DNA of 64,000 nt from a phage: assembly GCA_011939005.1 (NCBI GenBank), contig GCA_011939005.1_4858.1; one strand, given 5' to 3'. Position numbers and translations under genes: made by a program. A model generated the notes under the pieces. That model was given only the letters and a program-made list of their open reading frames with translations. It did not search any database and was not told where the DNA came from. Shown piece by piece: positions 3,014 to 24,713 of this stretch (position 1 is the first letter of the stretch; the number at the start of each line of letters is the position of its first letter).

Positions 3014-6000
3014 ATGGCTGTCGTCCCTGACCCGCACTATCAAGAACCGGGGAATATGCAGACCGGTGAAGCGGTAACGCCGATCGGTACTAAGTACCGG
3101 ATGCTGTTCCCCGCACACGCCCCCTTTTATACCACATCCCTGGTGGTCAAGAGTGGCGGCAAGAAATTAACATTAGGTGATGATTACGTCATCACCCATG
3201 CGTACGTTACGGGCATGGCACGCACTGGCCATGTTTGTCACGGCGGCGTGTGGATTACCAACCCGAAATATCAGAGTGGCTTTACACTCGATTACCACGC
3301 AATTGGCATCGGTGAAGCCACTGCAGAAATGATCGCCGCAGAACGAGAAGCGAATAAAGATCGCTATCCCGTGGACTGCCAATGGGATAACGTCATTGGG
3401 GATTTATATTTCCCACCGGTCGATATTAAGTTCGATTGGGAAAACTGGCGTGGCGAATCTGAGTTGATGGAAGCCATTGTTGCGGTTGGTGCTAAGCTCG
3501 GTGAAGCGATCAGTCGCGTTGACCCGATTGCTCGTAACACGTTAGACCTTCAATATCGCGCCGGCGTCACGCTTATCACGTCCGAGCAGTATGCGACGTA
3601 CGACGGTACTGGCGGCTACACGTATAACGCGTCACGTCGTCGTTATTCGTTATCTTACCAGAACACGACATTCGATGCGTATTCGTTAGCGGTAAAATAC
3701 CGTTTACCGAGCATTCCACCGGAAACAACGTTGAACCCAGGCGAGTTGATCGATTGGATGCTCTGTTACGCAAACGGTGGGACAAGTATCCTGCGTCTTC
3801 AGTTGAAGCAACGCGCGATTTATCTTACCTTAACGACAGCGATTGGTTCCGGTTCGTCCAATTACAGCTATACGTTGACGACTGGCCTGACTGATACCGA
3901 GTTGGCGGGTGAGGTTGAGTTTAGCGTGGTCAGACGCGAAGGTAACGGCGTTTACGACATCACCGTTAAAACAAGCAAGCAAACCGTTAACTACAGCTTT
4001 AACGTTGACAACCCACCGAGCGAATTTGCACCAGGGTATCAGAAAACTGATGTCGCAAAATGGTTGAAGTTTAAATCGGGCGTCAACCTAAACTGGTGGG
4101 CAGGTGAGAACGATTACGTCCAGATTCGTTCATTACCAGGCGCACCGGCACCTGACGTTAACAATGACGTGTACCAGCTGCTGGTAAAATATCACCAGAT
4201 TGTCGATAAACTGTACCGTGATGCACCGGCACACACACACGTGCCGCGCAAGGATAACCCGCATCGCGATTCGTGGGGCGCAATCCGTGCTTTGGAGAAT
4301 AACGGTATTGCTTCGGACGCGACACTGGTATACGGAAAAACGCAACCGCAGCTGACAGATTACGTTAACAATCTGTTGCCGAAACTGTCAACGCTGGCGA
4401 ATAAGCTTTTACGTTTACCGGCGGCTGCACAGTCTATCATCGGCACGTTCGGCATGAAGCCTGGCCTGACTTCAATAACGTCAGCAGTGGGTACCGATGA
4501 GTCTGAAGGCGTGGGTGCACAATTCACGGTTGACCCGAGGGTTATCCGTTTTATTGGCCGCGATTCGCAAACCGTTAACGCCGGGAACAATCCGATTACA
4601 TGGCAAGGTGGGGCTAACCAACTCATCCTTTATCCGGATTCCCGTGGATTGGAGTTCAACGGTAAGAAACTGTTGGACCCTACTACGGTCGGGCCGTACC
4701 TGCCGGGTAACGAATCAGGTGGTGATGGACTGTTTTACGGAACATCCACAGCTACTGTAACCATTAACGGTAACGGTATTCAGTCTGTTCCGTTCATTTG
4801 TACCTTTGTTCCACCGGAGTCCGATGACCTTGGCCTGATGGCTGTCCGTTTGTTGGCTACTGAATTCGGCGATCGTGAGGACTTGGCCGCAACGCCGGCA
4901 CTCATCAAGAAATTGGATCAGCAGTTTACGGGCAAGTTGGTTGCCGTTAAATCGTACATCAACGACATGCCACTGACGAGTTCTATTTACATCGATAAAA
5001 CTAACTTCGGCTTATCGAACGTACAGAACATCCCAGATGTACAATTGCCGATTTCCCCGCTCCAACAAGCTGAGCTGGACAAGTATGCAGTCGTCGGTCA
5101 CAAACACACTTCTGCCGCGTTCGGGATTAAGCGTGCAACAACGACGGAGTTCGGTTTAGTACAGTTCGGCACCGCGGTTGACGATGCCACTCTGGCATTA
5201 GACGGTGGTGAGGTCATCCGACAGGCGGACGCCATCACAGAGATAGAGAAGGTTGCGAAGACAGTCGACTCTGGTGCTTCAATCAACATTATTCGTTACG
5301 GTTTACCCGGCACGGATATCATTGAAAACGGCATCACTTACACCGACTGGATGGTTACTATTAAAGCGAACGATTATTTCGTTGGTCGCGAGTACAAAGT
5401 ACCTCTCTCCACATTTAACTTGGCGGAGCTATTCCCAGCGACGCACGAAGATGCTGAGTTTGGCGTGTATGTTGACGCGGCGGGCGATGACGGCAAGTAC
5501 ATTATCTACGAAAATCCAAACACGGCAGAAACTGAGACGATGACCAAAATAGGTTCCATCATCACCAGTGAAACCGGTGTGGTTTTTGTAGAAATCCGCA
5601 ACGTGACGCGTTTAGGTGAGTTCCGTGAATTAGGCGAGCATATCGAGGATGATAACGCCCATATTCGTCGGGGCATGACGCAAGCTGAATTCGGATTTAC
5701 TTACGGTACGGGCGGGCCTGTGTGGTCCACGGGCGCACCGGGTACAAAACGTATAGATGCTGATTGGCGTTACGCGCAGGCTAGCGGCTATACGCCTATG
5801 TTGAAAGCGGACTACGATCCGGCTGCTGATAAATGGACGTTTAAAACAACCAGTTTATCTGTAACCGATTATCGTTTTGTCCACAACACGTTCCCGATGT
5901 TCCAGAATAACGGCATTACCGCAACGTGGACACCTTTAACCGCAACAGCGGACAGTGTGCTAGAAACGGTAATTGGGTGTTGTCATCACTCGGCCACGTT

Positions 6001-6727
6001 CATGCACCGTATTTCTGTACTCGTCGCACGCACCGCAGGACGTATTACCACTCCAGGCGGTGTGAGCACGTATGCGGGAATCGCGGTTAACTACGGACGT
6101 GCTGCGCAGGTTGTTATTGGCTTGAACGGCGTTACTGGTTCCGGCCATGACTGGACGGCACTTAATCCATCGGTGCGTTTCAGCCACGCGCGAACAGCGG
6201 ACGGTATTTCGTTCGTGGGAACGATTAACATCGATTCCAAAACGATTAACTTTGAGCTGACGCTAACCGCGACAACAAAGACGCTGAAATACACCTTGCA
6301 GTCGACCGGCGAGTCGTGGACTGAGGATTTGTCTACCCGTCTCCGTCCTGACTATATCGACTTGACGAAACTGATTACCGATCCGAGTACGCCGATTTAT
6401 CACGGCGTGGGTGGTTTGTTTAGTTCCGACACAGAAGCGCGTTTGACCTACGCTAACCTGAACACGATGCCGACAAAGAATCGTTATTACGCCACGTTCC
6501 TTGACTATGCGATTAACTATTCCGGCTTAAACCGCGCAAGATTCTTTACTGGCGTGGTGGATGCAGGTTCAACGATTAATGAGATGAACAGCGCGATGAG
6601 CAACTATTCATACAGTTCGTTCCGACCAGTGGATACAGGTAAAATTCCACTGGTGGCACACCCATCCAAGATGATGACGTTCAATCCGAAAAACACGTCA
6701 GCTCGAACACTTATTATTCGTGATTAA
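3014..6727 (+). CDS. large tail fiber / fiber-associated structural protein (1237 aa)
   Basis: RBS AAGGAG; N-terminal module (FP..APFY..L.V) shared with the next three genes; size and composition typical of fibers. Confidence 0.6.
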   Translation: MAVVPDPHYQEPGNMQTGEAVTPIGTKYRMLFPAHAPFYTTSLVVKSGGKKLTLGDDYVITHAYVTGMARTGHVCHGGVWITNPKYQSGFTLDYHAIGIGEATAEMIAAEREANKDRYPVDCQWDNVIGDLYFPPVDIKFDWENWRGESELMEAIVAVGAKLGEAISRVDPIARNTLDLQYRAGVTLITSEQYATYDGTGGYTYNASRRRYSLSYQNTTFDAYSLAVKYRLPSIPPETTLNPGELIDWMLCYANGGTSILRLQLKQRAIYLTLTTAIGSGSSNYSYTLTTGLTDTELAGEVEFSVVRREGNGVYDITVKTSKQTVNYSFNVDNPPSEFAPGYQKTDVAKWLKFKSGVNLNWWAGENDYVQIRSLPGAPAPDVNNDVYQLLVKYHQIVDKLYRDAPAHTHVPRKDNPHRDSWGAIRALENNGIASDATLVYGKTQPQLTDYVNNLLPKLSTLANKLLRLPAAAQSIIGTFGMKPGLTSITSAVGTDESEGVGAQFTVDPRVIRFIGRDSQTVNAGNNPITWQGGANQLILYPDSRGLEFNGKKLLDPTTVGPYLPGNESGGDGLFYGTSTATVTINGNGIQSVPFICTFVPPESDDLGLMAVRLLATEFGDREDLAATPALIKKLDQQFTGKLVAVKSYINDMPLTSSIYIDKTNFGLSNVQNIPDVQLPISPLQQAELDKYAVVGHKHTSAAFGIKRATTTEFGLVQFGTAVDDATLALDGGEVIRQADAITEIEKVAKTVDSGASINIIRYGLPGTDIIENGITYTDWMVTIKANDYFVGREYKVPLSTFNLAELFPATHEDAEFGVYVDAAGDDGKYIIYENPNTAETETMTKIGSIITSETGVVFVEIRNVTRLGEFRELGEHIEDDNAHIRRGMTQAEFGFTYGTGGPVWSTGAPGTKRIDADWRYAQASGYTPMLKADYDPAADKWTFKTTSLSVTDYRFVHNTFPMFQNNGITATWTPLTATADSVLETVIGCCHHSATFMHRISVLVARTAGRITTPGGVSTYAGIAVNYGRAAQVVIGLNGVTGSGHDWTALNPSVRFSHARTADGISFVGTINIDSKTINFELTLTATTKTLKYTLQSTGESWTEDLSTRLRPDYIDLTKLITDPSTPIYHGVGGLFSSDTEARLTYANLNTMPTKNRYYATFLDYAINYSGLNRARFFTGVVDAGSTINEMNSAMSNYSYSSFRPVDTGKIPLVAHPSKMMTFNPKNTSARTLIIRD

Positions 6728-6739
6728 GGAGATTTTTGA

Positions 6740-9700
6740 ATGAAAACGTATCCTTACGATCCTCGGGGTGTAAATCCTGAGTGTCACTTCATCGAGGAAC
6801 GTATCATCGACTCCGACAATCCTAACGATCGGGTGGTGATGCTAGATCATCGCCCGTTTTTCGAAGGATTGGTGGTAAGGCTCGCCGGCTCGTCCATACC
6901 GCTTACCCGCGGGACGGACTATGAGCTGGAGTATGCTTTAACACCGTTGGACGACTCGGTGACGACCCCGGTGTTTTGCGGGGTGCATCTTATTAACCCT
7001 AAACTGCGTGGTGCGGTGGTCTTTGAAGGCCAGATGCTCGGGGGTACGTTTTACAGTGGTTTGATTGAGATGTTGGATGAGCTAGTTAAGGCACTCAACA
7101 ATCCAACGGCTGCAGATTGGCTGCTTTTAGGTAATCGACCTTCCCTGTACCCAGCCACCCCTGCAGCGGTGGCTTGGTCAGACATGCTGAATAAAAAGTA
7201 TGTTGCCTCTGCAGTGCATGATGTGGAGTTAGATGCCGGGGCGGCCAACGAGCAGATTCGTGAAAAGCTTACTGAGCTGAAAGATGCGGTTTTGGGCTTA
7301 GGAACTGAAATCGCCGCATTTAACTACCCCGGACACATTGCGTCGACTAACCCTCATGGGACTACCGCGGCGCAGGCCGGTGCGCATCCTGTCAACCTGA
7401 AAACGCCAGATACTTTCCTGGCGTATGGAAAGACGTTGCGTCAGTTAACCAGCGAGGTCCGTGCACTGGGTCTGCAACAATCGGATATCGACAAGTACAT
7501 TTCTAAATGGGTATCGAAAGAATCCAAAGGGGTGTTTAATGCGACGATATCCGGTACTCGTGCCCTGTTCCGTTCTCCTGCTGGTGAATCCGAAATTGTG
7601 TTCTCTGCTGAGGCATTCACTCTTAAATCTAATGGCTCTGTTGTGTTGGCGTGTGGGTATGCCGACACTACTGGAACCGTCCGGTTTATGGAGTGGAAAG
7701 CAGGCATCAATACATTACGTATTGAGTCGACTGGCAGTGCCTTGGGGATGGATAAGCTGACGCTTAATGGTACGACGTTACTGACCACAACTGCTCTCAT
7801 GGGCTATCAACAAGACCCTGGTACCGGCGGTGGTACCGTTGACCCGGATGACAACAAACTGTACATTAGCGGGGTGAACGGCATCACTTTCACGGGTAAA
7901 GGGTCAAAAGCCGATCCCGTCACCGGGAAGGTCACAGCCAAACCCGCGACGACCTCTGAACCAGGCGTTGTGACGCTGACTGATAAGCCGAGCGATGTAG
8001 TCAAAGGGCAAGCAGCCACCCCGTCGGCGCTTTTGCCGTATGAGGGCGACCTGTCTTCGTACGTCAGGAAGACAACGCTGCTGAATAACCAGCCGATGAA
8101 CACTGGTAGTCGAACGCTGACGAAAAAGGATTTAGGTTTAGACTTGGCTGATAACACAGCTGACGTCGATAAACCACTTTCTGATGCGTTGGCAGAAGCA
8201 GTTACCGGTCTTAGTGATAAAGGTCACCATCACAACTTCGCTGATTTACAGATTCCAACAGCCTCTCAAACTGTGCCAGGTATCGCACGATACTCTACCA
8301 ACTTAAACGGCTTGGCGGATAATCGCGGCGTTACCCCGAATGTTCTGAACGATCTGTCAAAACGTTTAGACGTAGTTGCAGCTGCGCTAGCAAACGCGAA
8401 AGAGGATTCCGTGACCGATTTTGCCGCTGTGCGTGGTAAGACTTGGACTGTGGGATCTACACGTACCACCCTCGCCGTAACGGATTTGAATTATTTCTAT
8501 CTGTTAAATGGTGCACGTAAAGAGGGGACGGTATCTGGTTCGATAGACCTGCAAACCACCCCGATGTTCCAGTGGTTCTCTCCAGATAACCGTATGGAAA
8601 GAACGTGGCAGAACGCGGTAATTAATATCGGTGACGGTATTGATTTTAGTGGGTTTGAGGTTGCCGTCCCGGAAACGAACTACGGTGCGCAGATTGGGTT
8701 AACGGCAACCGGCATGGGTGACTTATCGGTTGTTAACCTTTTAGCAAAAACGTGGGTTCGTTGCGATACAGGTAAACTACGTATTTGGGTTCGTGGCGGT
8801 GGTGCTGTTTCTGTTTATCTGGACGGTGTAATTATCGGTGCGGGTATTACAGAAGCGGGGTATCTGGAGGCGACTGTCAAAGAGGGGTGGAAGCAACATT
8901 GCCTGGCGTTTCGTGCGGAATGTAACAATAGCGCGAAAGCAGCTGCTATACGCTTCACCATTTACGATGGTGATTACCCGGTTGCGGTGTCGGACAAAAA
9001 CACCAAAGTTGCCCGCCTGCAGGAGTTTGTTAAGACCGCGAACGGTTTACGACATTATCTTTACGTGAACATGATAACCAACGCATTGTATTCACGTGCG
9101 GAACCCATTGTGGACACGGAAGGTATTAACCTGGAGCGTGGGTACATTGGTTACATTGATGTACCCGAGACGGGATTGGTTGCAGGTACGACTTACGAGT
9201 TTGAAACGACGTTTGATTTTGGCATGGCGTCCGAACTTAAACGGCACTTCGAAACACGTCTGGCGCACGGAGTGAGTAATGCCGACTGGTCGTTGACGGA
9301 TAACCCAAAAATGTTACCGCTAAACAAAGTCGATCCGTTGCCTAAACAGTGGCTTTATGCGTACCCTAATAGTCCAGTTTCTGGTAACCACTATATTCGA
9401 TTAGACCGAGGGTTATTCGATTATAAATTTGATAGTACCATTTCAAGCCTAGTGTTTGTTGGAGCGGTTGTCTCCACAGAAAGCGCATCACCGTACTGCT
9501 GGTTTACACCAAGCAACCCGAAAGAAAAAGGGATGGCGACGTTTGAAGGTTCTGTGGTGGTCGATGTTGATTTGTCGGAAGCACAAACAGTTCGCGTTCG
9601 CGATATCACATTAAACTTCATGGCCCCGTCTGCAGATGATAAAAGCAAGACCAGGGTACTGAGATGGAGTGGCAATCGTCCAGAATTGAATTGTGGCTTC

Positions 9701-10870
9701 ATCACGTCTCCTTATAACCAAGCAACTGGAGGCATCATCTCGACCACGCAGGGCAGTGTTACAAATAAGGTGCTTGAAAATCCGAGGGTAATTAAAAACC
9801 TGACGAGCCAATCTACCGAGTGTTTAGATTTTCTTTCGGTTCATACCGATAGTGAGCTTGCGCCGCTTGGAGATCGTTGGCTTGTACGTTATCGATACAT
9901 TGTTGATACGCAGGTACTGCGCATCTCAATGGTTTCTAAGTTGATAGCCAATCCGCTGGTGCAGGTTTACGAAATGGAATACGACATTCCGTTTGATGCG
10001 ATCGATTACTTTAAAGGTGGGGCGCTAGCCATCCACGTTTCCGGTATTGAAACTGGAGACAACGTGACTATTAACCACGGTTTGATGCAGCCGATCATCT
10101 CAGATGTGGATATAAATCGTTTCCATTATTTACGTTCACTGTTTGAGTCGTATATTGAAAGGACACCAGATAGACAGTCTTCCGGCCACGAGGAGATGAC
10201 AGTAACAACGGTACCTTTTGCGTCATTTGGAGATAACGTTGATCACCCGGTTACGGAATACATCACGATGTCTGCTGCAAGTGAGGGTTATCCGGAACTT
10301 GCACCGAACGGTAAACTCCCAGCGCCGTTTTATAAAGGGCTGCAGAAACGTGGTGCTCCGCTACTTGAGTCGGCTCCTGCCGACTATACGTCTAACGGTG
10401 GTGAATGGAAGTACGGCTTTATGCGGACTTATCGCCCGACTCAAACTGAGCGTTTTGTGTCGGTAAATGGGACAATGCTCTCTAACTACCCCGGATATAT
10501 CGTCGTGGGTAGTGAGAAAATTCCGGGTAATGTTATACCTTTCAGTGCGTCGACAACAGCTGTTCGGATATCCAGGACTCTTGCCCGCACGAAACCGATG
10601 CAGCCAATTCACATCGTGTTCGTGCCTCCGGAAGGTTCTGTGCCGCCGCTGCAAGCGAAGTTCACTATTAATGGTGTGGGTAGTAGTGGTAATCCGATGT
10701 TCGTGATTACTGAAACGACACCGGTGGAACTTCGCACGGGTGGCGAGACGATTCTCATTGAGAAGCGTAATCCATTCCACATCCCCACCAGGACATGGGA
10801 TTGGATTTTACAAACGTTGGATACTGAACGTAGAAACGAAGGCAACAACTCGGGTGAGTGGGCCTCTTAG
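6740..10870 (+). CDS. tail fiber protein (1376 aa) with phage-fibre repeats
   Basis: RBS AAGGAG; shared N-terminal module; repeats of type TSEPGVVTLTDKPSD...AATPSAL and HHHNFADL...GIARYSTN resemble the Phage_fiber_2 repeat. Confidence 0.65.
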   Translation: MKTYPYDPRGVNPECHFIEERIIDSDNPNDRVVMLDHRPFFEGLVVRLAGSSIPLTRGTDYELEYALTPLDDSVTTPVFCGVHLINPKLRGAVVFEGQMLGGTFYSGLIEMLDELVKALNNPTAADWLLLGNRPSLYPATPAAVAWSDMLNKKYVASAVHDVELDAGAANEQIREKLTELKDAVLGLGTEIAAFNYPGHIASTNPHGTTAAQAGAHPVNLKTPDTFLAYGKTLRQLTSEVRALGLQQSDIDKYISKWVSKESKGVFNATISGTRALFRSPAGESEIVFSAEAFTLKSNGSVVLACGYADTTGTVRFMEWKAGINTLRIESTGSALGMDKLTLNGTTLLTTTALMGYQQDPGTGGGTVDPDDNKLYISGVNGITFTGKGSKADPVTGKVTAKPATTSEPGVVTLTDKPSDVVKGQAATPSALLPYEGDLSSYVRKTTLLNNQPMNTGSRTLTKKDLGLDLADNTADVDKPLSDALAEAVTGLSDKGHHHNFADLQIPTASQTVPGIARYSTNLNGLADNRGVTPNVLNDLSKRLDVVAAALANAKEDSVTDFAAVRGKTWTVGSTRTTLAVTDLNYFYLLNGARKEGTVSGSIDLQTTPMFQWFSPDNRMERTWQNAVINIGDGIDFSGFEVAVPETNYGAQIGLTATGMGDLSVVNLLAKTWVRCDTGKLRIWVRGGGAVSVYLDGVIIGAGITEAGYLEATVKEGWKQHCLAFRAECNNSAKAAAIRFTIYDGDYPVAVSDKNTKVARLQEFVKTANGLRHYLYVNMITNALYSRAEPIVDTEGINLERGYIGYIDVPETGLVAGTTYEFETTFDFGMASELKRHFETRLAHGVSNADWSLTDNPKMLPLNKVDPLPKQWLYAYPNSPVSGNHYIRLDRGLFDYKFDSTISSLVFVGAVVSTESASPYCWFTPSNPKEKGMATFEGSVVVDVDLSEAQTVRVRDITLNFMAPSADDKSKTRVLRWSGNRPELNCGFITSPYNQATGGIISTTQGSVTNKVLENPRVIKNLTSQSTECLDFLSVHTDSELAPLGDRWLVRYRYIVDTQVLRISMVSKLIANPLVQVYEMEYDIPFDAIDYFKGGALAIHVSGIETGDNVTINHGLMQPIISDVDINRFHYLRSLFESYIERTPDRQSSGHEEMTVTTVPFASFGDNVDHPVTEYITMSAASEGYPELAPNGKLPAPFYKGLQKRGAPLLESAPADYTSNGGEWKYGFMRTYRPTQTERFVSVNGTMLSNYPGYIVVGSEKIPGNVIPFSASTTAVRISRTLARTKPMQPIHIVFVPPEGSVPPLQAKFTINGVGSSGNPMFVITETTPVELRTGGETILIEKRNPFHIPTRTWDWILQTLDTERRNEGNNSGEWAS

Positions 10871-10965
10871 GACGGACTGCCTACGGGCGGGTAGTCCGTA
10901 GGTAAACCGCCCTTCCGTTATTGGGAGGGCGGTCTCCGTTTTATTACAGATTAGGAGTGTTTGCA
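10871..10965 (+). other. structured intergenic region with nested hairpins between fiber genes
   Basis: Inverted repeats CCTACGG/CCGTAGG and CCGCCC(T)TCC/GGAGGGCGG followed by T-rich tract. Confidence 0.4.
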
Positions 10966-13900
10966 ATGCCGAGAGAAGATGCGGCGCAGTTTAACGGTAC
11001 CCTCAGTACCGCTACTTACCCGAACCGTTATTCGACGGTCATTCCCGTCGAAGCACCGTTCTATCGCATCGGGTTAACGTTAACCGTTACCGATAAAACA
11101 ACCGGAACCAAACGCAAGTTAATAGAAGGTCTTGATTATTTCTTAGGACATTACTTCCAGGAATTAGCCGAGGCTGAGAACGATGCAATATACGGCAGCA
11201 TAATGCTGCTGAACGCCACAGAGGTAGAATACGAGTTATTGTCGGTTGGTCGACAGTATCGCATCCCTGCTTCTGAAATCGGCAAGTATCTGGTTAAGAC
11301 GGATATGAAAGACCCGCGCAACTGCGATTGGTCTGAGCTGATGAAATATCCGCCGATTATCTCGCCAATCGACCCGCCAAAAGATCTCGAAGAAGCCATC
11401 CTTCGCGATGAAATCGTAAAGGCGTTGGAAGATATCCGTCTGGGTATTTTAGAACGTGCCCACGAACTGGATGAGGCTTTTGCGGAAGTTACTGATTTGA
11501 TTTATCAGAACGGTAAAAAGGTGTTTGATGACGAAATGTATCAACACCACCTGATTAAAAATGCACATGGTTACACCTGCGGTGACATTGGCGCTCTCCC
11601 GGTACTCGGCAAAGCCGTAGATGCGACTAAGGCATTCGGACGTACCCTGGCAGAGCTAGTGACGTTAATGTCTACCAGTGGCATCCAACAGAAACACGTT
11701 GACATGCTTCTGGATAATACCCTGGGTGATTTACTGGGCCGTATGCGTGTTCTGAATAACGACGCGATTACGTTCCAAACAACGTCTGGTCACGTTATCA
11801 GCATGAAGGGTGAGAAGTTCATCATCACCTCGACAAAACCGCTGGTATTAAAAGCTGACCAGGATAACAACGAACCGGGTATCGCTACGGAGTTCAGTGC
11901 TGGTCTGAACACGCTTTGGGTTCACTCGGGTAAAGCAGGTGACAAGTGGGGCGCTTATGATGCAGGTGTGCTTGCACCTGTGTATAACAGCGTGTATCTC
12001 GTTACGCCGGATATGGTTAAGATGTACTTGACCTCGGTGAAGATACTTCCAGCAAACGCCTACTTCAAGTCCAGCGACACGTTGAAGATTTACGGCTCTG
12101 GTAAAGAAACAAACAAACTTTACATGAATGCGGAGCTGCCTGCAGCAACCACAACTGTGCAGGGTTTGTTTGCGATTACTAACCTTTCGGCGTCCGCTGC
12201 AGCATCCACAGCGATTTCCCAAAAAGCTGTTACTGACTTGAAGAACAAACTCGACGGATATGTGGACGACACGTATACAGTCAACGGTAAAGGGTTTGTA
12301 TTAGATTCAAACGGGCAGATGCATCTGACCTTAACCGCGGCAGATTTCGGTATTGAGAAGATGAACAATACCGGGCCGCTGGAGAAACCGGTTACTAATG
12401 CGTTGCGCACCGTGCTATCTGGCAAAGCGCTTACAACGCACACCCACACCATTGCCGATCTCGATAACGTGCCGTACGCATCCACGTCTGTTACAGGTTT
12501 GGCTAAACTGTGGGATGCTATTGACACCACAACAGATAAGATGGTTACTTCGCGTCAAGGCTTCTTGCTTGAACAGAAGATTGACACGCTGAATGACAAG
12601 ATTGCTACGTTATTACCGGCGTGGACTGTCGGCGGATCATCGTACGGCAACAATAACTTCTTGCCTATACCTGTCCAGGGGAACTACGAAGGGTATACCA
12701 AAAACCAAACCTGGCAGAAAGGTTTGGCGCGTTACGAGTCTGGTAAGGTTTACTCGCTCCGTAACGGTTCTAACGGGAACCCACCAGGTGACTGGGCTAT
12801 CTATTACGCCTATGCTGATGTGTCGCCAAGCAATACGCTGGAAAATATGCAGCAGACGTCCGTACGCTATCGACCCGCTGGAATGTCGGCGTATCCTGGG
12901 GTGAATCTGGTTGCTATTGTGATTACCGGTACCGATGCAATGATCTGCTTAGGCAGTGACGGTGCGTACTACCTGGTCATCTTCGATGGGACGATTGACC
13001 ATGCAAAACATCATCGTGTTGTTAAAGTGGTGTTGGGTGATTACAAGAACGGTAATGGTGCGGGCACAGTAACGACAGCACCGTGGGCTCCAAACGCTTC
13101 TACAGACGATTTGATTGTTTGTAATGAACGTGTCTACCTGTTGCGTACGGTGCTTACCTCCGGTAACTATTTCGTGAGTATGCGTAGCATCGCACTCAAC
13201 GAACTTAATCTGGGTGGCAGCAACACGTTTGTGGCGGATGCGTTAACAGGCGGGATATTAACGTCGGGTGAAAACGTTTATCTGCGACAGGGACAGAAAC
13301 GTGCACCTTCCGATGCGCTCCCAGCACCAGTTACACAGATCTACGCAGACGCGTTAGCGAAGTGGAACAATGCAACCAACTTTGTACATGGTCCTGAGTG
13401 TAATCACGCGATTGGTGTTGATGGGCTGAGCTTTCGTGTTGGTTTAACTCCAACGGTTTGGTTTGCTTCTACTACAGGGCAAACTATTAACTTTAAACAA
13501 TGGGTGTCAAGCTTTGTTGTCGACTGTAGCGCATTAACGGTAACGCTGGAAGGGGCTGATCGATTCCCTATTGTGGCTGATCTTACCACGGTTCGTTATA
13601 ACGGTGGTACTGAGATTGGGATTCCAAGCCGGAAGTGGGGCGAAGGTCAAGCTAATAACCGAACCTTTGCAACATCGCAAGACAAGTATATCGTTTCGCA
13701 GGGACATGCAGGCGATCGCGACCTAATGCCAATTGTCACGATTACCACGTTAGACGACGGTGTGAGTTGGTACGAGTACCTGTCGTGCGACTACAACTTC
13801 ACTGCCAGAAGTTTTAGTGCGGTAATGTTAAACCAAGGTCGTGGTTCTATCTACGAGCTAGGTATGGCGTATCCACTGACTCTGGGAGCGAATTCCAGAC

Positions 13901-16149
13901 TTATCTGGTTGTCACAGCCACGTTCCCGTTTGGCAATTGAAGTTGAGTTTGATCCGAACACCACTTACTCAGGTAAGGTGGGGTATGGCCCAACTAACAA
14001 TCGTCGTGTAGTAGATTCTATCACGTATGAGAATCTGTCGCAGATGTGCCACATTGTTACACCGGCGTCGCCTGGTACAGAGTTAAACGGCTGGTATTGC
14101 ACAGGGCCAGAAACATTCCCTTACCACAACGTTTCTGGCACTTTCACGATTCATGCCGATCGGTTGACGCTGTCACAGGCCGAATGGGATAAGATGAAGC
14201 AGATGATCATCGACGGTGCACCGGCAGGCGCTGCGAATGGTTATGCTTCGGAATTTATCCTTGCCGCAAATAACGCAGGAAAGGCATTGTTCTCCGTTTG
14301 GTTCATCGGCATTGGTACGGCCACACCGCTCACGTTAGCACAAGTAGCATGTACGCGTACTGTGAACAACGTTAACGTGTTGGATATCTACTACTTTACA
14401 CTGAAACCAACAATCAGCAACGGGCAGGTAACATTCCCCGCAGCGATATTGGCTTTGTTTGACTTCTATAACAACCTCGACTATAGCTTGAACTATGCTA
14501 CGTTGGGTGAGATAACGGGAGGAAAAACACGCCGGCCGGGACAACCTACCTTGGTGTCAGTAGATGGTACTCAGTTCGGGTTGTATCTTCCACACACGTT
14601 AACCTTGCGCCAAATTGGCGACTTGGGTGCGCTTAACTACGCTGTTGGTCTTACGCTGTCTAATGGTACTTGGACGCGTTCTTCTGCTCCACACGGCGTT
14701 GGACGTATGGCACCGTCACACACTCCAGTCAGTCCAGCTTATCTGGCACATCGCGATCAAGTGATGTTACACAACTCATCTCTCGACTACGTCTATTGTG
14801 GTGGTATCGCAACGCCGTCGAGAGATTTTGTCGCGGCTCCTAATTTTAGTGGCCCGACTGAATCGGTTGTCATTGCTGGTGTGGAAACAGCTGAAGGTTG
14901 GCTGGTATATGTGACTGAGGAAGTTGACCTGCGTTTCGGCTCGAGCACTTATAAGCTGCCTACGTGGTATATTGACCTCAGCGCAGCATTTCCAACAAAC
15001 CATCAGAACCGGACATTCTACCTGCACGCCAAGGTAGAAAATGGTACACCGAAGTACGTAATGGACGTGGTTCAACATCCAGACACTGAAACGGAACTCT
15101 ACATCGGGTATGTTAAAACGGGCTCGTCGCGAGTCGTCGAGACTAACGTCGAACATGCTAAGCGATTGGGGGCGGTGAAACAACTGTTGGAACATGCGGC
15201 GGTTGAGAATAAGCATGATGTGGAGGTGGGAAGGGATGCGGCAACGGGCAGACTGGCACCATTGCGTAAAGAAGCGATGGGTCCTTTGTCTATCGATGCT
15301 ACGAAAGGCTATCTGGATAGTCAGTTGCTTTATACCGTATCTGACGCACAGCGTCGCGGTAAACCGATGGTCTCCAAACGTTTCGAAGGCTTGAAAACTT
15401 TGCCGGCGTTTACTCAGGCAAACAAGTCGGGGGCGTTTTGGAAACATCCTACAACAATTGCGACGGTAACGGCCGATGAGAACGGTGAAGCGGCATCGTT
15501 GGGAATGGAGTGGGTGGGTATCCCTACGCCTGCTTTCTCTCCGACCTCAGGAATGATGATAGTGGTGATACAAAGTAAATTCGTCGTCCCAGGTACACCG
15601 GGAGTAGAAACGACCTTTAATGTCAACATCGCCCCATGGGATACGGTAGATAGATTTTTCTACAACGTCGAGGCGGAAGGTAAGGATGTTAACATTGAAG
15701 AAAATCCAGAAGTGCTAATGCCGACACCACATACCGTGTATCACAAACAGCATTCTCTGCCCGCAGGCGTGCCATGTACGTTTACTTTCGCTGCTGTGTT
15801 GAGTTCCCCAGCGCTTGAGATGGCCAACCAGCATATTTGCTCTTGGCTTTTCACGGACGCGGGGGGACTACCAATCACCACCGATCTTTCGGATAGTAAG
15901 ATTCAAATCTTACCATTGGGGGGAGAGACCTACGGCACACCAGTTGTTTTGAACAGCCGTAGCTACACGTTTGTGGATGTGGCGGGTGCAATTCCGGTTG
16001 TTACCACGGGCGCTCAGGGTTTATTCCCACCACCGATCGTGGCGTGGGATGGCGATGATCTTACGTTAACGATTGCGCACGATTGGGTGAACGAGAGAGG
16101 ATGGCAACAGCCTGATATTATCCAGGTCAATCTTATGTTCCGTACCTAA
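10966..16149 (+). CDS. tail fiber protein (about 1727 aa from internal ATG)
   Basis: ORF track starts at an upstream non-ATG codon; ATG at 10966 has RBS TAGGAG; shared N-terminal module; fibre-repeat-like segments (HTHTIADLDNVPYASTSVTGLAKLWDA). Confidence 0.65.
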   Translation: MPREDAAQFNGTLSTATYPNRYSTVIPVEAPFYRIGLTLTVTDKTTGTKRKLIEGLDYFLGHYFQELAEAENDAIYGSIMLLNATEVEYELLSVGRQYRIPASEIGKYLVKTDMKDPRNCDWSELMKYPPIISPIDPPKDLEEAILRDEIVKALEDIRLGILERAHELDEAFAEVTDLIYQNGKKVFDDEMYQHHLIKNAHGYTCGDIGALPVLGKAVDATKAFGRTLAELVTLMSTSGIQQKHVDMLLDNTLGDLLGRMRVLNNDAITFQTTSGHVISMKGEKFIITSTKPLVLKADQDNNEPGIATEFSAGLNTLWVHSGKAGDKWGAYDAGVLAPVYNSVYLVTPDMVKMYLTSVKILPANAYFKSSDTLKIYGSGKETNKLYMNAELPAATTTVQGLFAITNLSASAAASTAISQKAVTDLKNKLDGYVDDTYTVNGKGFVLDSNGQMHLTLTAADFGIEKMNNTGPLEKPVTNALRTVLSGKALTTHTHTIADLDNVPYASTSVTGLAKLWDAIDTTTDKMVTSRQGFLLEQKIDTLNDKIATLLPAWTVGGSSYGNNNFLPIPVQGNYEGYTKNQTWQKGLARYESGKVYSLRNGSNGNPPGDWAIYYAYADVSPSNTLENMQQTSVRYRPAGMSAYPGVNLVAIVITGTDAMICLGSDGAYYLVIFDGTIDHAKHHRVVKVVLGDYKNGNGAGTVTTAPWAPNASTDDLIVCNERVYLLRTVLTSGNYFVSMRSIALNELNLGGSNTFVADALTGGILTSGENVYLRQGQKRAPSDALPAPVTQIYADALAKWNNATNFVHGPECNHAIGVDGLSFRVGLTPTVWFASTTGQTINFKQWVSSFVVDCSALTVTLEGADRFPIVADLTTVRYNGGTEIGIPSRKWGEGQANNRTFATSQDKYIVSQGHAGDRDLMPIVTITTLDDGVSWYEYLSCDYNFTARSFSAVMLNQGRGSIYELGMAYPLTLGANSRLIWLSQPRSRLAIEVEFDPNTTYSGKVGYGPTNNRRVVDSITYENLSQMCHIVTPASPGTELNGWYCTGPETFPYHNVSGTFTIHADRLTLSQAEWDKMKQMIIDGAPAGAANGYASEFILAANNAGKALFSVWFIGIGTATPLTLAQVACTRTVNNVNVLDIYYFTLKPTISNGQVTFPAAILALFDFYNNLDYSLNYATLGEITGGKTRRPGQPTLVSVDGTQFGLYLPHTLTLRQIGDLGALNYAVGLTLSNGTWTRSSAPHGVGRMAPSHTPVSPAYLAHRDQVMLHNSSLDYVYCGGIATPSRDFVAAPNFSGPTESVVIAGVETAEGWLVYVTEEVDLRFGSSTYKLPTWYIDLSAAFPTNHQNRTFYLHAKVENGTPKYVMDVVQHPDTETELYIGYVKTGSSRVVETNVEHAKRLGAVKQLLEHAAVENKHDVEVGRDAATGRLAPLRKEAMGPLSIDATKGYLDSQLLYTVSDAQRRGKPMVSKRFEGLKTLPAFTQANKSGAFWKHPTTIATVTADENGEAASLGMEWVGIPTPAFSPTSGMMIVVIQSKFVVPGTPGVETTFNVNIAPWDTVDRFFYNVEAEGKDVNIEENPEVLMPTPHTVYHKQHSLPAGVPCTFTFAAVLSSPALEMANQHICSWLFTDAGGLPITTDLSDSKIQILPLGGETYGTPVVLNSRSYTFVDVAGAIPVVTTGAQGLFPPPIVAWDGDDLTLTIAHDWVNERGWQQPDIIQVNLMFRT

Positions 16150-16196
16150 CAGATAGCGCTATGGGGCAAGGAAGCCCCAATCAAAGGAGTTTGGCA

Positions 16197-17399
16197 ATGG
16201 CCGAAATCATTTATCAGTACCCGCTCGACCTTACCGGGACATTAACGTCGAACGCCGTTACGCGGCGTATTACGTTAGGTTCTGGTAAAGTTAACCGGGC
16301 TTTTGCATTTCCTGACGGAGCTTTCTACGCGGATACCTTCCGCTTGGCGGCTGCGAATAAACCAGGTGTCTACCCGTACAAACGCGGCACAGACTACGAA
16401 CTGATTTTTGCACATACTGCATATCAGAAAATGACCAAGAACCGCGAAGTGGTCATGGGTGTGGTGGTAACTAACTCGGCCATTCCTACTGATATCGAAG
16501 TCTCTGCGCAAGTCGTTGGTGGTTTTCAGTCCGCGAACGTCGAAGGCATCCGACAAGCGATTGCGTCGTTGAAAATTGAAGACCGCGTGGTGGACTTCAA
16601 GGATCTTCGAAACGTACCCGATACGTTCCCGTCCGCACCGACGTATAAAGACCTTGGCGATATCTACGGTTTTGAGTATATCATTACCGTACTCGCGGGG
16701 ATTAAAGATGCGATTAACTCCGGCTCTGCAGTACAGCTGGAAGAAATTAAAGGTATTCTGGGTGGTCTGAAAAACGACTTCCTCGACGCCTTAAATGCCC
16801 ACATCAACGCCGAAGGTAACGTACACAATCTCGACATTCATCAGGTTAATGGCCTGACGGAGACGGAGATTCGTGCCCTGATTCAAAGTGTACAGACTGC
16901 CATTGACGCCACCATCAAAGATATCGGCGACTTAAGAGCAGCAGACACAGCGTTGGGGCAACGCATCGATGCAATTGTGGCTTCGTTAGCCGCGTGGAAC
17001 GACCAGCTTAACGTGGTTGCTCAAAATTACCAGAAAATGTCGTTAGCATTAGCTAACCTTAATTCTCTGGTGTTGCAATTACAGAAGATGGTTAACGATC
17101 TTCAGTCTGCACTGAATAAAACAAATCAGCGCGTCACGGATCTTGAGAATCAGGGCAAAGACTTCCAACAGCAAATTGATAACCTGCAAGGACAAATCAA
17201 CAGTCTTAAAACTCAGGTTGTAAATAACACCAACGCAATTTCGCAGGCAAACCAGAATCTGGCGAACCATGCGGCTGCGGATAACCCACACCCGAATTAC
17301 CTCCATAAACAGTATGGCGGTGTTGTGCAGGCTGCTGTTCACGTCAACAACAACCTCACCTCGCGCGACGATGTTCAAGCTGAAGCGGGTACTAAGTAA
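16197..17399 (+). CDS. fiber-associated coiled-coil protein (about 400 aa)
   Basis: Internal ATG with RBS AAAGGAG; shared N-terminal module (GTDYEL); long heptad-like Q/N/L-rich C-terminal region. Confidence 0.55.
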   Translation: MAEIIYQYPLDLTGTLTSNAVTRRITLGSGKVNRAFAFPDGAFYADTFRLAAANKPGVYPYKRGTDYELIFAHTAYQKMTKNREVVMGVVVTNSAIPTDIEVSAQVVGGFQSANVEGIRQAIASLKIEDRVVDFKDLRNVPDTFPSAPTYKDLGDIYGFEYIITVLAGIKDAINSGSAVQLEEIKGILGGLKNDFLDALNAHINAEGNVHNLDIHQVNGLTETEIRALIQSVQTAIDATIKDIGDLRAADTALGQRIDAIVASLAAWNDQLNVVAQNYQKMSLALANLNSLVLQLQKMVNDLQSALNKTNQRVTDLENQGKDFQQQIDNLQGQINSLKTQVVNNTNAISQANQNLANHAAADNPHPNYLHKQYGGVVQAAVHVNNNLTSRDDVQAEAGTK

Positions 17400-18516: not shown

Positions 18517-19404
18517 ATGAAAAACGATTTGCATCTTGCGTATAAAACCACATTCAACCACCCGCTGCATCTATCTTCCCCAGATTCAGTGCGTGCACAT
18601 CTCGCTGACAAAGTCAGACTGATTGCACAGATTCCTGGTGAGTGGCCAAAGGTTCGTGGTCGCTTCTTGACCGACAAGAAGAACTACACCGTAGAAAATA
18701 CGTTTAAGATCCGTGATATGGTTGCAGAGGCCATCGTTATCTTTAACGGCGATGGTAACTCTCGCGGCGTGTTGGTTGACGGTAAGTATTTCTTCAGTGA
18801 AGGGATTCTGAACAACAGTGTCGATTTAGAACTGATGTTTACACCGTTTGACGAACTTGAAGCAAAACCGATGGCGCGCCGTTGGTGGAGTCCGGACTAT
18901 CTGGGCTCGTTCCCTTACTACTTTGTACTGGTACCTGCCGATACGGAAACGTATTTCGACACCGAACCATACATCGATATCGAGGGGTATAAAGAACTCG
19001 GCATCACCCGTTTAGCGGACATGATGGCGTATAGCTATAAGTTCGTGTGGGATAAAAAGCGTTCTGTCTGGTATGCGCTGACTGACGATTTTGAAATCAC
19101 CAAGCGTATTCGTAAGCCGTGGATGCAACACCTGGTTCAAACTCGATATGGGGATTACCCGGCGACAGAAGCGGATTTGAGTAAGCTGGTAAGTTTCCTC
19201 TTAACGAAGGTGGATTTAACGAAAGAAGAAGCAGAAGCTGTTTCTGAGATTCGTGGTCGTTCGGTAACGTTGGCCGATTTGAAACGTCTGAACGAAAGAC
19301 ACGCCGACCTGAACAAAATTTTAGCTGCCTATCACGACCCGATGTTACTGGTGCCTGGCGCTAACGTAGACGAAGATCCTTTATTCGCCATTGATTATAT
19401 TTAA
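18517..19404 (+). CDS. hypothetical protein (295 aa) in Cys-peptide/radical-SAM operon
   Basis: RBS GGAG; co-oriented and tightly spaced with neighbours; no motif recognised. Confidence 0.55.
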   Translation: MKNDLHLAYKTTFNHPLHLSSPDSVRAHLADKVRLIAQIPGEWPKVRGRFLTDKKNYTVENTFKIRDMVAEAIVIFNGDGNSRGVLVDGKYFFSEGILNNSVDLELMFTPFDELEAKPMARRWWSPDYLGSFPYYFVLVPADTETYFDTEPYIDIEGYKELGITRLADMMAYSYKFVWDKKRSVWYALTDDFEITKRIRKPWMQHLVQTRYGDYPATEADLSKLVSFLLTKVDLTKEEAEAVSEIRGRSVTLADLKRLNERHADLNKILAAYHDPMLLVPGANVDEDPLFAIDYI

Positions 19405-19426
19405 AAATATACTGGAGCAACCTGCA

Positions 19427-20341
19427 ATGACAGATCAAGTAGAATCCAGGATCTCGTCTGAACTGTACGACAAACCGTCAATTCTGTCGGTTGTCGCAAC
19501 TTCTAAGTGTAACTTAGACTGTAGCTTCTGTGGAGGGGCTTATTACATGGATAGAGAAGATACTTCTCGTGAGTTTCAACGTGAAGAGATTCTCTCGATT
19601 TTAGAGAAGAATCCGGATATCGGTGAGATTCATTGGACGGGCGGTGAGCCGCTGTTAGCGCAGCGCAAGATTGAAGACTTCGTGAACGAGTTGAAGGAGT
19701 CTCATCCGAACCTCCGTCATCACATGTACACCAACGGTTTAAAGATGCGTAAATCACATCTGCCGTTGCTGAAACAGTTCGACCTTATCTTTGTGTCCAT
19801 TGACGGCTACAAGAAGTCGGAACGTCCGTTTATGAACTTTGTAAACGGTGGTAATCACGAAGCGCTGGAAGTGCTGTACGAGCTGGACAACTATTACACC
19901 TGGGGTGTGATGACGCGTGACCAGTTAGGTGATAAACGCTGGTACGAAGATTTCATCGAGCTGCACCGAGCAATCTATCATTACCGTCCAGGTGGTATGT
20001 CGTTGCTGTTTGATGCGATGATGCCGAAACCGTTATCGCCAGACCACGTCATGAACTTCATGTACGGGTATTGGAAAATACTCGACAATATCGAACGCCT
20101 TAACATGCAGAACGATTCTGAATGTGGGCTTGCGATCAGTAAAATGTTCGATACCGAGTGCAACACGTGCAGTGAAGTGCTGTGGCTTAACGCCGACGGT
20201 ACGCAGGAGCAAATTCAGAACGCCCCAGAGATATTGGAAGTCGGCTGTAATCGCCTGGCGCGTTCTATCGGCGTTGATGCGTATAACTACATCAACCGTG
20301 TAATTTCTGCTAAGCGTAAACGGGCGGCGAACAATGAGTAA
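19427..20341 (+). CDS. radical SAM enzyme (about 304 aa)
   Basis: C-x3-C-x2-C (CNLDCSFC) about 28 aa from the internal ATG start (RBS GGAG); GGEPLL motif; extra C-terminal cysteines (CGLA...CNTC...C) suggest an auxiliary cluster. Confidence 0.75.
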   Translation: MTDQVESRISSELYDKPSILSVVATSKCNLDCSFCGGAYYMDREDTSREFQREEILSILEKNPDIGEIHWTGGEPLLAQRKIEDFVNELKESHPNLRHHMYTNGLKMRKSHLPLLKQFDLIFVSIDGYKKSERPFMNFVNGGNHEALEVLYELDNYYTWGVMTRDQLGDKRWYEDFIELHRAIYHYRPGGMSLLFDAMMPKPLSPDHVMNFMYGYWKILDNIERLNMQNDSECGLAISKMFDTECNTCSEVLWLNADGTQEQIQNAPEILEVGCNRLARSIGVDAYNYINRVISAKRKRAANNE

Positions 20342-21662: not shown

Positions 21663-22191
21663 ACTGCACTTGGTCGATCGCTTCCTGCGCAAAAGCAAGC
21701 TGTACAATGTGCACGCAATTGTGGCAGGGGAAGACTTCACTGATGAAATCCAAAGCCTGTTGATTAAATACGGGCTGAATGTGATGATCCCGGTCTACTG
21801 CGTTGAGAAAGGACACGAGTCTGTCGCAGAAATCGAAAAGCGCAATCCTGGCTTTGAGAAGCGATTGCTCGCATACCCACGCCACAAAATCGAACTGCTA
21901 CGTCATTCCATCGATGAAGCCAGTCCTGAAAGTTTAGTGGCTTTGGGCTTGTCTTTCCCGCGGATGCGTATTCGTAACTTACGCTCCAATAATCCGGTCG
22001 ACGCGTATTACACAGAGCGTCAAATCTTTGAAGAACATCTGCTCCCGCAGTTGGAAGAAGAAGAGCAACACAACATTTCGTTGTTGTGGGCCGGTAACCT
22101 CGATCAGGACTTCCAGATGCTGGACTTCGGTTTGTTGTTAGAACTTGGCCTGATTGAGGAGGACGAATGTCTGTTACTGACAAAAGCTTAA
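21625..22191 (+). CDS. hypothetical protein (about 188 aa)
   Basis: Internal ATG with RBS GGAG; overlaps end of upstream gene; same operon. Confidence 0.45.
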   Translation: MKSILIHNFTKRKLHLVDRFLRKSKLYNVHAIVAGEDFTDEIQSLLIKYGLNVMIPVYCVEKGHESVAEIEKRNPGFEKRLLAYPRHKIELLRHSIDEASPESLVALGLSFPRMRIRNLRSNNPVDAYYTERQIFEEHLLPQLEEEEQHNISLLWAGNLDQDFQMLDFGLLLELGLIEEDECLLLTKA

Positions 22192-24704: not shown

Positions 24705-24713
24705 TTTCTCTCC

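Follow-up and report, generated by a model that had tools for sequence, protein, structure and literature searches.

The DNA analysed here (the window) is a 64,000-nucleotide stretch of phage sequence (GenBank assembly GCA_011939005.1, contig GCA_011939005.1_4858.1) that belongs to a strain of Seoulvirus SPN3US and is 98% identical to Salmonella phage JN03. Four consecutive large genes, as claimed in an earlier note made from the sequence, occupy open reading frames on the + strand at positions 3014-6727, 6740-10870, 10921-16149 and 16161-17399, and are the orthologues of SPN3US gp170, gp169, gp168 and gp167 (SPN3US_0170 to SPN3US_0167), respectively. All 14.4 kb of this fibre locus are 98% identical to JN03 and 94.8% to SPN3US; amino-acid identities to the SPN3US proteins are 98.3% for gp170, 84.7% for gp169 and 96.2% for gp168. 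Beyond position 19408 the ungapped identity to SPN3US is lost, which was traced to a single-base intergenic indel. The gp170 and gp169 reading frames encode 1237 and 1376 aa. For the other two genes the most likely starts are the ATG at 10966 (giving 1727 aa for gp168) and the ATG at 16197 (giving 400 aa for gp167), on which AGGAG-type Shine-Dalgarno sequences upstream, the conserved N-termini of homologues and the SPN3US annotation agree. The strongest terminator-like hairpin of the region (10906-10933, + strand; 12-bp stem with 8 G-C pairs, T-rich tail) sits in the 95-nt gap separating gp169 from gp168. Matches to sigma-70 promoters were discarded, being rarer than in shuffled sequence.

Directly upstream of the fibre genes, on the opposite strand and divergently transcribed, lies the gp171 orthologue (1684-2946, - strand; 420 aa), which matches phiKZ gp130 over its full length (BLASTP E 9e-16). 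phiKZ gp130 is an outer-baseplate protein beneath which the fibres dock (PMC13250141), and in SPN3US gp171 is an essential, tail-associated protein (PMC5105663). The same layout, a divergent gp130 homologue beside two to four genes bearing the N-terminal module described below, was found in eight other phiKZ-related (chimallivirus-type) jumbo phages, namely phiKZ, Psa21, Serratia 2050HW, Ralstonia FLC4-4C, Erwinia PhiEaH1, Salmonella SA002, Aeromonas pAEv1810 and Proteus phage 10.

The N-terminal segment that the earlier note had seen in all four proteins was confirmed, though it is weak at the sequence level: in a four-protein comparison the segments are 15-21% identical, with 8 invariant columns across 200 aa. 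Pairwise BLASTP gave E values of 2e-24 (gp168-gp169), 6e-6 (gp168-gp170) and 3e-7 (gp167-gp169), all four proteins matched the N-terminal part of phrog_2163 (E 3e-14 to 2e-107), and BLASTP of the four against the phiKZ fibre proteins returned E values of 1e-13 to 6e-7. On these alignments, the likeness among the four N-termini is far beyond chance. The two motifs by which it had been recognised, F.P..APFY/F and L.RGTDYEL, are present but degenerate, occurring as FPAHAPFY, LDHRPFF, IPVEAPFY and FPDGAFY, and as LTLGDDYVI, LTRGTDYEL, LIEGLDYFL and YKRGTDYEL, respectively.

An HMM of this anchor module was built from the N-termini of phiKZ gp131, gp133, gp134 and gp135 only and searched against the 337 six-frame open reading frames of the window. 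It picked exactly the four fibre genes, with no further open reading frame at E<=10. The matches were the anchors of gp170 (3014-3463, + strand; E 5e-12, with a BLASTP match to the phiKZ gp131 N-terminus at E 5e-9), gp169 (6740-7189, + strand; E 9e-10) and gp168 (10966-11415, + strand; E 2e-6, with BLASTP to phiKZ gp131 at E 1.4e-8), together with that of gp167, which has the remaining E value, 2e-12. The anchor is laid out as a beta-domain of ~140 aa, a helix and a paired-histidine motif, H-x(5-7)-N-x-H; in an eight-protein alignment with the phiKZ members, the helix and the H-x(5-7)-N-P-H motif are collinear, the motif in gp170 being pushed downstream by a ~200-aa insertion. The module was found in 3131 representative proteins, every time at residues 1-200, and a sample of 49 anchor-bearing proteins includes Peptidase_S74, Phage_fiber_2 and Collar domains. 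Neither Pfam nor NCBIfam holds a model of the anchor, and the phiKZ fibre N-domains had no sequence match in the PDB copy searched.

A neighbour-joining tree (computed without bootstrap values) and cross-phage best matches split the N-domains into a gp131-type class (class I), comprising gp170, gp169 and gp168, and a gp135-type class (class II), comprising gp167. Phages with two anchor copies have one of each class. We infer that the N-domains form two old classes, of which the long class was triplicated here and the short class in phiKZ.

Downstream of their anchors, gp170, gp169 and gp168 run collinearly through a shaft of ~290 residues, in which each has fibre repeats and an HxH motif. Landmark spacing in this shaft is 279-291 residues in all three proteins and their orthologues, and the three shafts are several indels apart. 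Phage-fibre-type repeats had been noted in the two largest proteins; they are present there but are not limited to them, as all three long proteins carry them. In Pfam, all matches of window proteins to fibre-repeat families fell below the gathering threshold (Phage_fiber_2, PF03406, in gp170 at E 0.11 and 12.6 bits versus a cut-off of 22; PTR, PF12789, in gp168 at E 0.014 and 15.9 bits versus a cut-off of 27), while motifs resembling the repeats can be seen in each of the three shafts and the Pfam fibre-repeat threshold is passed by 5 of the 49 sampled anchor-family relatives. PHROG tail and tail-fibre families were matched by proteins of the fibre locus.

The long proteins differ beyond the shaft. 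gp170 consists of the anchor (aa 1-150), an insertion at ~190-400 that is lineage-specific and missing from the orthologue P0239, the motif HTHVPRKDNPH at 407, the shaft (395-745), a second histidine motif at 876 and a distal domain (884-1237). gp169 has its anchor at 1-150, the histidine motif at 199 and the shaft at 185-580, followed distally by invariant E832, H836 and H843 and then a variable part. A marginal lectin match in a profile search of the PDB (E 4e-4, best-domain i-E-value 0.024) makes it possible that residues ~611-750 of gp169 form a lectin-like jelly-roll; the same profile searches returned nothing for gp168 or gp170, and single-sequence PDB searches gave no match for any of the three long proteins. 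In gp168, the anchor (1-150), the histidine motif at 194 and the shaft (180-570) are followed by a globular beta-rich region (558-1400), invariant H1410 and H1417, and a beta-sandwich (1469-1727). The distal region as a whole (aa 545-1727; 12598-16146, + strand) is predicted to fold into globular beta-propeller-like and beta-sandwich domains, so that, going by the models, the distal parts of the fibres are not purely fibrous. The propeller matches are at fold level alone (7-12% identity) and therefore name neither a ligand nor an enzymatic activity. phiKZ gp131 ends in a C-terminal seven-bladed beta-propeller (Sycheva et al. 2012); gp168 had no sequence match to this domain, and its own blades are not countable.

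The short protein gp167 (16197-17399, + strand; 400 aa) matches phiKZ ORF135 (BLASTP E 1e-13; tblastn E 2e-8 within a 2.3-Gb database). It comprises the anchor (10-110), helices (159-204), the histidine motif (202-210), a coiled coil (222-360) and a second histidine motif at 358-365. The coiled-coil-rich character first noted for this protein is supported by many matches to coiled-coil families and by AlphaFold2, which models residues 222-360 (16860-17276, + strand) as a single helix with pLDDT 84-92 across 290-350. Matches of gp167 in single-sequence PDB searches were dismissed as coiled-coil noise. Foldseek returned no PDB match below E 0.05 for the model, which leaves the anchor fold not tied to any solved structure. 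In SPN3US, gp167 was identified as a virion protein by mass spectrometry (PMC5694885, PMC5105663).

Within the species, the fibre proteins vary mainly in their distal parts, at aa 851-1200 of gp169 and aa 1501-1700 of gp168. Protein and DNA identity to SPN3US drop across the gp169 segment (9290-10339, + strand): ungapped protein identity to SPN3US gp169 is 8-12% at aa 901-1000, compared with 96-100% in the flanks. At the DNA level, positions 8900-10300 are 96-99% identical to JN03, EC001, Lh1B and SaP7, and 76% identical to SPN3US, the SPFM phages, SEGD1 and Proteus phage 7. Two alleles of the distal gp169 region occur in the species, and that in the window is of the JN03 type, not the SPN3US type. 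A 1393-aa gp169 homologue falls into over 100 separate clusters, at first sight a sign of hypervariability; these are ~98% identical to one another, so the pattern is a clustering artefact and not the work of a diversity-generating mechanism.

We consider it probable that this SPN3US-like jumbo phage, a relative of phiKZ, builds its baseplate-attached fibres, the receptor-binding apparatus, from the products of the four genes. In SPN3US, gp168-170 are virion proteins, detected by mass spectrometry and missing from tailless particles (PMC5694885, PMC10052503), and gp168 was 'expected essential', with an amber mutation seen in a double mutant only (PMC5694885, PMC5105663). In the 2026 phiKZ cryo-EM atlas, each fibre base is formed by six N-domains of the gp131 type together with a bundle of six helices, docked under gp130; the chains were assigned by docking AlphaFold3 models in 4.4-4.6 A density, and the authors' word for them is 'candidate' (PMC13250141). 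By homology with phiKZ, the anchors encoded in the window would oligomerise and attach beneath the gp171 orthologue, the gp130-like product of the adjacent gene. The three long proteins would continue as a shared shaft and then as diverging globular domains, and gp167 as a coiled coil of ~140 residues past its anchor. The propeller-like distal domains of gp168 and the distally concentrated variation suggest that the distal domains of the long proteins most likely bind host surface structures. Of the proposal that several fibres attach at a common site, we retain the tail-fibre or receptor-binding nature of the proteins and the N-terminal module as an anchor to one baseplate docking structure, given its homology to phiKZ gp131, gp133, gp134 and gp135, paralogues proposed to co-assemble with six N-domains per fibre base; the picture of separate fibres is disfavoured.

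Separate fibres would mean four independent homotrimers, each plugged by the shared N-module into equivalent baseplate sockets, as in phages with multiple receptor-binding proteins (RBPs). We regard this as possible but doubtful. Repeats and HxH motifs of the kind seen in the shafts typically mark homotrimeric fibres, the shaft indels and an identity of only ~22% would be awkward for a heterotrimer, and the three long proteins are about equally abundant in SPN3US virions. Against this, phiKZ, the closest solved relative, has six N-domains from several paralogues at each base and two docking sites per sixfold unit, a number indivisible among three or four fibre types, and the two-paralogue phages always retain both anchor classes, which suggests partners and not alternatives. 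The other arrangement raised in the earlier note, a multi-segment long fibre with the four proteins joined end to end like T4 gp34-gp37, was not upheld and appears highly improbable. The order of four consecutive large genes with a short one last is only superficially like that of gp34-37; in T4 the proximal segment alone binds the baseplate, whereas here the anchor is common to all four, and this places them in parallel. Sequence and profile searches of the PDB brought up no similarity between the four and T4 fibre proteins, and phiKZ fibres are short (~50 nm) and described as short-tail-fibre analogues (PMC13250141).

It is also unlikely that the four serve mainly as structural parts of the outer baseplate (wedge or periphery) and take no direct part in receptor binding. 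They appear in the SPN3US papers as 'baseplate/tail fiber candidates' (PMC5694885, PMC5105663), the phiKZ N-domains belong to the baseplate periphery, and a comparison of Seoulviruses reported two positively selected virion structural proteins, not necessarily any of gp167-gp170, as predicted baseplate wedge proteins (PMC6614189). A scaffold is harder to reconcile with distal variability within one species, fibre repeats in the shafts, lectin- and glycosidase-like propeller folds and relatives with Peptidase_S74 and Collar domains, and a purely scaffolding role is unlikely for proteins of 135-188 kDa that end in globular domains.

Within the favoured fibre apparatus, each fibre base may contain three class I chains (one each of gp168, gp169 and gp170, or a homotrimer) and three class II chains (gp167). 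phiKZ would then be the mirror image, with one class I gene (gp131, three copies) and three class II genes (gp133, gp134 and gp135). Anchor copy number varies from two to four between phages, so 3+3 need not be a fixed rule. Spectral counts from SPN3US, a rough measure, put gp167 to the long proteins at ~1.3-1.9 : 1, not 3 : 1, and cannot separate a heterotrimer from a homotrimer because both models predict the same ratio. We offer only tentatively that the hexameric socket is a conserved 3+3 platform fillable by duplicated genes, and that class I in Seoulviruses is a gp168/gp169/gp170 heterotrimer. Such a fibre would carry three different receptor-binding heads on one stalk, beside a gp167 coiled-coil trimer, the reverse of phiKZ with its class I homotrimer and class II heterotrimer.

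The fibre paralogue family itself is already known: its role in SPN3US was published in 2016-2017 and the structural logic of phiKZ in 2026. SPN3US gp168-170 were described as tail-associated 'paralog family C' and candidates for baseplate or fibre proteins (Thomas et al. 2016, PMC5105663; Ali et al. 2017, PMC5694885). The genes in the window are the orthologous set, located in the virion and tail and linked to phiKZ gp131, but where the published family has three members (PMC5105663, PMC5694885), gp167 here also bears the anchor. The likeness to phiKZ extends to homologous N-anchors, helices and H-x-N-P-H motifs, four anchor-bearing genes in both phages and the gene order beside a divergently transcribed gp130 homologue. 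The two phages differ in the make-up of the set, where a single long protein and three short ones (~460 aa) in phiKZ stand against three long proteins (1237-1727 aa) and a single short one here. BLASTP found no sequence similarity outside the anchor region, and there is no counterpart here of the small gene gp132. As in T4 gp34-gp37 and gp12, the shafts contain histidine-containing motifs and fibre repeats, and phiKZ-type fibres have been compared functionally with T4 short fibres (PMC13250141); unlike in T4, each protein has its own baseplate anchor, there are no end-to-end segments, and there is no homology.

In rV5, phi92, CBA120 and phiKp24, adaptors join RBPs to one another in a branch. 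Those phages resemble the window in having several RBPs with differing distal domains on conserved N-terminal adaptors and in swapping distal modules between close relatives. The window would differ from such branched systems in its single anchor domain family, which by analogy with phiKZ would bundle at one docking site; no Pfam, PHROG or NCBIfam match pointed to rV5/phi92/CBA120-type systems.

To what was known, the analysis adds the split of N-domains into two classes, the propeller-like distal domains of gp168, the two alleles of gp169 and the inclusion of gp167 in the family. For annotation, gp167-gp170 together with gp171 can be treated as the fibre module of Seoulviruses. Both O-antigen and flagella have been reported as receptors in this genus. 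Seoulviruses are used as Salmonella biocontrol candidates, which gives the module value for host-range engineering; gp169 aa 851-1200 and the tip of gp168 are the obvious places for differences in receptor specificity. The two-class pattern makes a prediction, open to testing, about which chains make up the fibre base, and a 3+3 platform, if true, would offer jumbo phages a general route to multi-receptor specificity without extra docking sites.

The 14.4-kb fibre region aligned over its full length with Salmonella phages JN03 (98.0% identity) and SPN3US (94.8%), and at least 80% of it was covered by 23 phage records. Given this full-length identity, the window was assigned to Seoulvirus SPN3US, as a strain of this nucleus-forming jumbo phage related to phiKZ. 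Its four consecutive plus-strand ORFs are orthologues of SPN3US_0170 (gp170; 3014-6727), 0169 (gp169; 6740-10870), 0168 (gp168; 10921-16149) and 0167 (gp167; 16161-17399). Likely starts of the last two are ATG 10966 and ATG 16197, yielding proteins of 1727 and 400 aa; both codons follow an AGGAG-type ribosome-binding site and agree with the N-termini of many homologues. The gp171 orthologue, a homologue of phiKZ gp130, lies just upstream on the minus strand (1684-2946). Of the terminator-like hairpins in this region, the strongest (10906-10933, plus strand; 12-bp stem, T-rich tail) falls within the 95 nt that separate gp169 from gp168, and a second, imperfect one is found just upstream of it (~10872-10901); the pair could act as an attenuator or divide the cluster into two transcription units. 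Two radical-SAM genes (19391-21662, plus strand) were located ~2 kb downstream of the cluster, past three or four small uncharacterised genes, and in the Ralstonia phage FLC4-4C locus (L007, 21152-31450) a block encoding a cupin, an Fe-S oxidoreductase, a radical-SAM protein and a 2OG-Fe(II) oxygenase directly follows the two fibre genes; such enzymes might act on nucleotides or on the fibres. Also downstream, a few kb from the fibre genes, the SPN3US RefSeq annotation has a DUF4376 protein and a 'tail assembly chaperone' (by offset, window positions ~22166-22837 and ~24713-25354), both of which could be fibre-assembly factors.

The N-terminal segment common to the four proteins is weak by eye (15-21% identity) but statistically solid, with pairwise BLASTP E-values of 2e-24 (gp168-gp169), 6e-6 (gp168-gp170) and 3e-7 (gp167-gp169). 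All four matched the N-terminal part of phrog_2163, and a profile built only from phiKZ gp131, gp133, gp134 and gp135 retrieved exactly gp167-gp170, with no further match, from 337 ORFs called in all six frames across the 64-kb window; the common module proposed in the earlier note was thus borne out. gp167 matched phiKZ ORF135 (E 2e-8; tblastn, 2.3-Gb phage database), the phiKZ gp131 N-terminus was matched by gp170 (E 5e-9), gp169 (E 6e-7) and gp168 (E 1.4e-8), and the gp171 orthologue was homologous to phiKZ gp130 across its full length (E 9e-16). Gene order in phiKZ is alike, with gp130 on the minus strand followed by gp131 to gp135. The 2026 phiKZ cryo-EM atlas describes twelve fibres, each proposed to comprise three copies of gp131 with gp133, gp134 and gp135, a chain assignment termed 'candidate' by its authors and based on AlphaFold3 models that were docked into 4.4-4.6 Å density (PMC13250141). 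Combined with this fibre structure, the homology to phiKZ identifies the shared module as the putative baseplate anchor of the fibres.

Searching with a profile made from the N-termini of gp167-gp170 recovered 3131 representative proteins at E<=1e-3 (2100 at E<=1e-10), of 159-2164 aa and with the anchor match always at residues 1-200. Among 49 sampled members, Peptidase_S74 and Phage_fiber_2 domains were each present in five and a tail Collar domain in one, a mix characteristic of a conserved anchor that carries putatively exchangeable receptor-binding payloads. A divergently transcribed gp130 homologue always preceded the anchor-bearing genes in 8 other phiKZ-related (chimallivirus-type) phages. 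These genes number four in phiKZ, Psa21 and this window, three in Salmonella phage SA002, Aeromonas phage pAEv1810 and Proteus phage 10, and two in Serratia phage 2050HW, Ralstonia phage FLC4-4C and Erwinia phage PhiEaH1. By cross-phage best hits and a neighbour-joining tree without support values, the N-domains fell into two classes, a gp131-type anchor borne by a long gene, first in the array, and a gp135-type borne by a short gene, last. Both two-copy phages in the tree, 2050HW and FLC4-4C, carry one anchor of each class (PhiEaH1 was left out of the tree). phiKZ and Psa21 combine a single long gene with three short ones; in the window, three are long (gp170, gp169, gp168) and one, gp167, is short. 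By analogy with phiKZ, we infer that the fibre base would require three chains per anchor class; on that reading the long class was triplicated in the Seoulvirus lineage and the short class in the Phikzvirus lineage, although the rule is not a simple one, since some phages have three anchor copies.

Fibre-type repeats, which the earlier note had confined to the two largest proteins, were found in all three long ones. Their shafts are collinear, running from an H-x-N-P-H motif through YGKT, a first repeat, a 'DLGL..N..D.KP' motif and HxH to a second repeat, and the two histidine landmarks are spaced 279-291 residues apart in these proteins and their orthologues. The 400-aa gp167 is coiled-coil rich, as first noticed, with a helix at residues 222-360 of its AlphaFold2 model. 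Module boundaries in gp167-gp170 are marked by a recurrent paired-histidine motif, H-x(5-7)-N-x-H (gp168 H1410/H1417; gp169 H836/H843; gp170 H876/H883; gp167 H202/H210 and H358/H365), of which each phiKZ paralogue has two or three copies; its histidines are invariant or nearly so in orthologues down to ~20% identity and could plausibly form a metal site in the oligomer. Between its anchor helix and first histidine motif, gp170 carries an insertion of ~200 aa (residues ~190-400; window 3581-4213), absent from the other paralogues and from a 1021-aa gp170 orthologue (P0239). Residues 545-1727 of gp168, modelled with 39 homologues (mean pLDDT 84.3, pTM 0.67), were predicted to be globular and all-beta, with a low-confidence linker around the invariant H1410/H1417 and a beta-sandwich in the last 260 residues. 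The predicted head is propeller-like, a similarity of fold only, which names no ligand; it would fit a carbohydrate-binding or carbohydrate-cleaving head and parallels the phiKZ gp131 propeller. A gp169 profile gave a marginal match of residues 611-750 to a mushroom lectin jelly-roll (E 4e-4).

Anchors and shafts were 96-100% identical to SPN3US, and the variable parts of gp169 and gp168 lie at the distal tip, beyond the second histidine motif. Relative to SPN3US, gp169 residues 851-1200 (window 9290-10339) are replaced, with ungapped identity of 8-12% at residues 901-1000; the gp168 tip (residues 1501-1700; window 15466-16065) is the second most variable spot, at 80-88%. The gp169 cassette exists within one species as two equal-length alleles, one shared by the window, JN03, EC001, Lh1B and SaP7 (96-99% DNA identity) and the other, 76% identical to the window, by SPN3US, SPFM phages, SEGD1 and Proteus phage 7, between DNA flanks that are 97-98% identical. 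Because it sits at the distal tips, this variation supports a receptor-binding role, and both tips are likely host-range determinants swapped by recombination. Reported Seoulvirus receptors are O-antigen for SPLA1a (PMC10949491) and flagella for SPN3US (PMC11428620). More than 100 gp169 homologues of 1392/1393 aa (P0118-P0228; ~98% identical to one another, 48% to gp169, C-terminal half the more variable) come from isolate assemblies of Salmonella, E. coli and Shigella, where their contigs reach ~227 kb; this fits the persistent Seoul-like jumbo phages described from bacterial assemblies (preprint 10.1101/2024.12.31.630880). The Seoulvirus records LR535901-LR535917 (SPFM1, 5-10, 12, 14, 15 and 20) aligned with the fibre genes only in 8-11 short pieces, or yielded aberrant proteins (P0042, P0044, P0049, P0100-P0105), which looks like frameshift-rich assembly rather than real divergence.

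The best supported reading, and a probable one, is that the four fibre proteins would be mounted in parallel, their one common anchor docking under gp171. The earlier interpretation of fibres on a common attachment module therefore largely stands; its multi-segment, T4-like alternative, with proteins joined end to end, is very unlikely, since each of the four carries a separate anchor and PDB sequence and profile searches showed no resemblance to T4 fibre proteins. The distal variability and the predicted lectin- or glycosidase-like folds make it improbable that the proteins serve the baseplate in a purely structural capacity. Within parallel mounting, phiKZ and the anchor class pattern suggest a 3+3 hetero-hexamer, in which gp168, gp169 and gp170 might form a heterotrimer or alternative homotrimers; independent homotrimeric fibres seem a less likely arrangement. 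Mass-normalised SPN3US spectral counts (gp167 1.90, gp169 1.41, gp168 1.08, gp170 1.00) do not discriminate between these models.

Earlier work has already described the cluster in SPN3US and, at the structural level, in phiKZ. SPN3US gp168, gp169 and gp170 constitute 'paralog family C', similar to phiKZ gp131, and are virion proteins missing in tailless particles and baseplate or tail-fibre candidates; gp168 carries the label 'expected essential', since a double mutant was the sole source of its amber mutation, gp171 is essential and tail-associated, and gp167 is a virion protein without family assignment (these data and the spectral counts: PMC5105663, PMC5694885, PMC10052503). Placing gp167 as fourth member is a small increment, as PHROG 2163 already groups all four. 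With it, the modest additions made here are the two putative anchor classes with reciprocal triplication, the allelic cassette of gp169 and a gp168 head predicted to be propeller-like.
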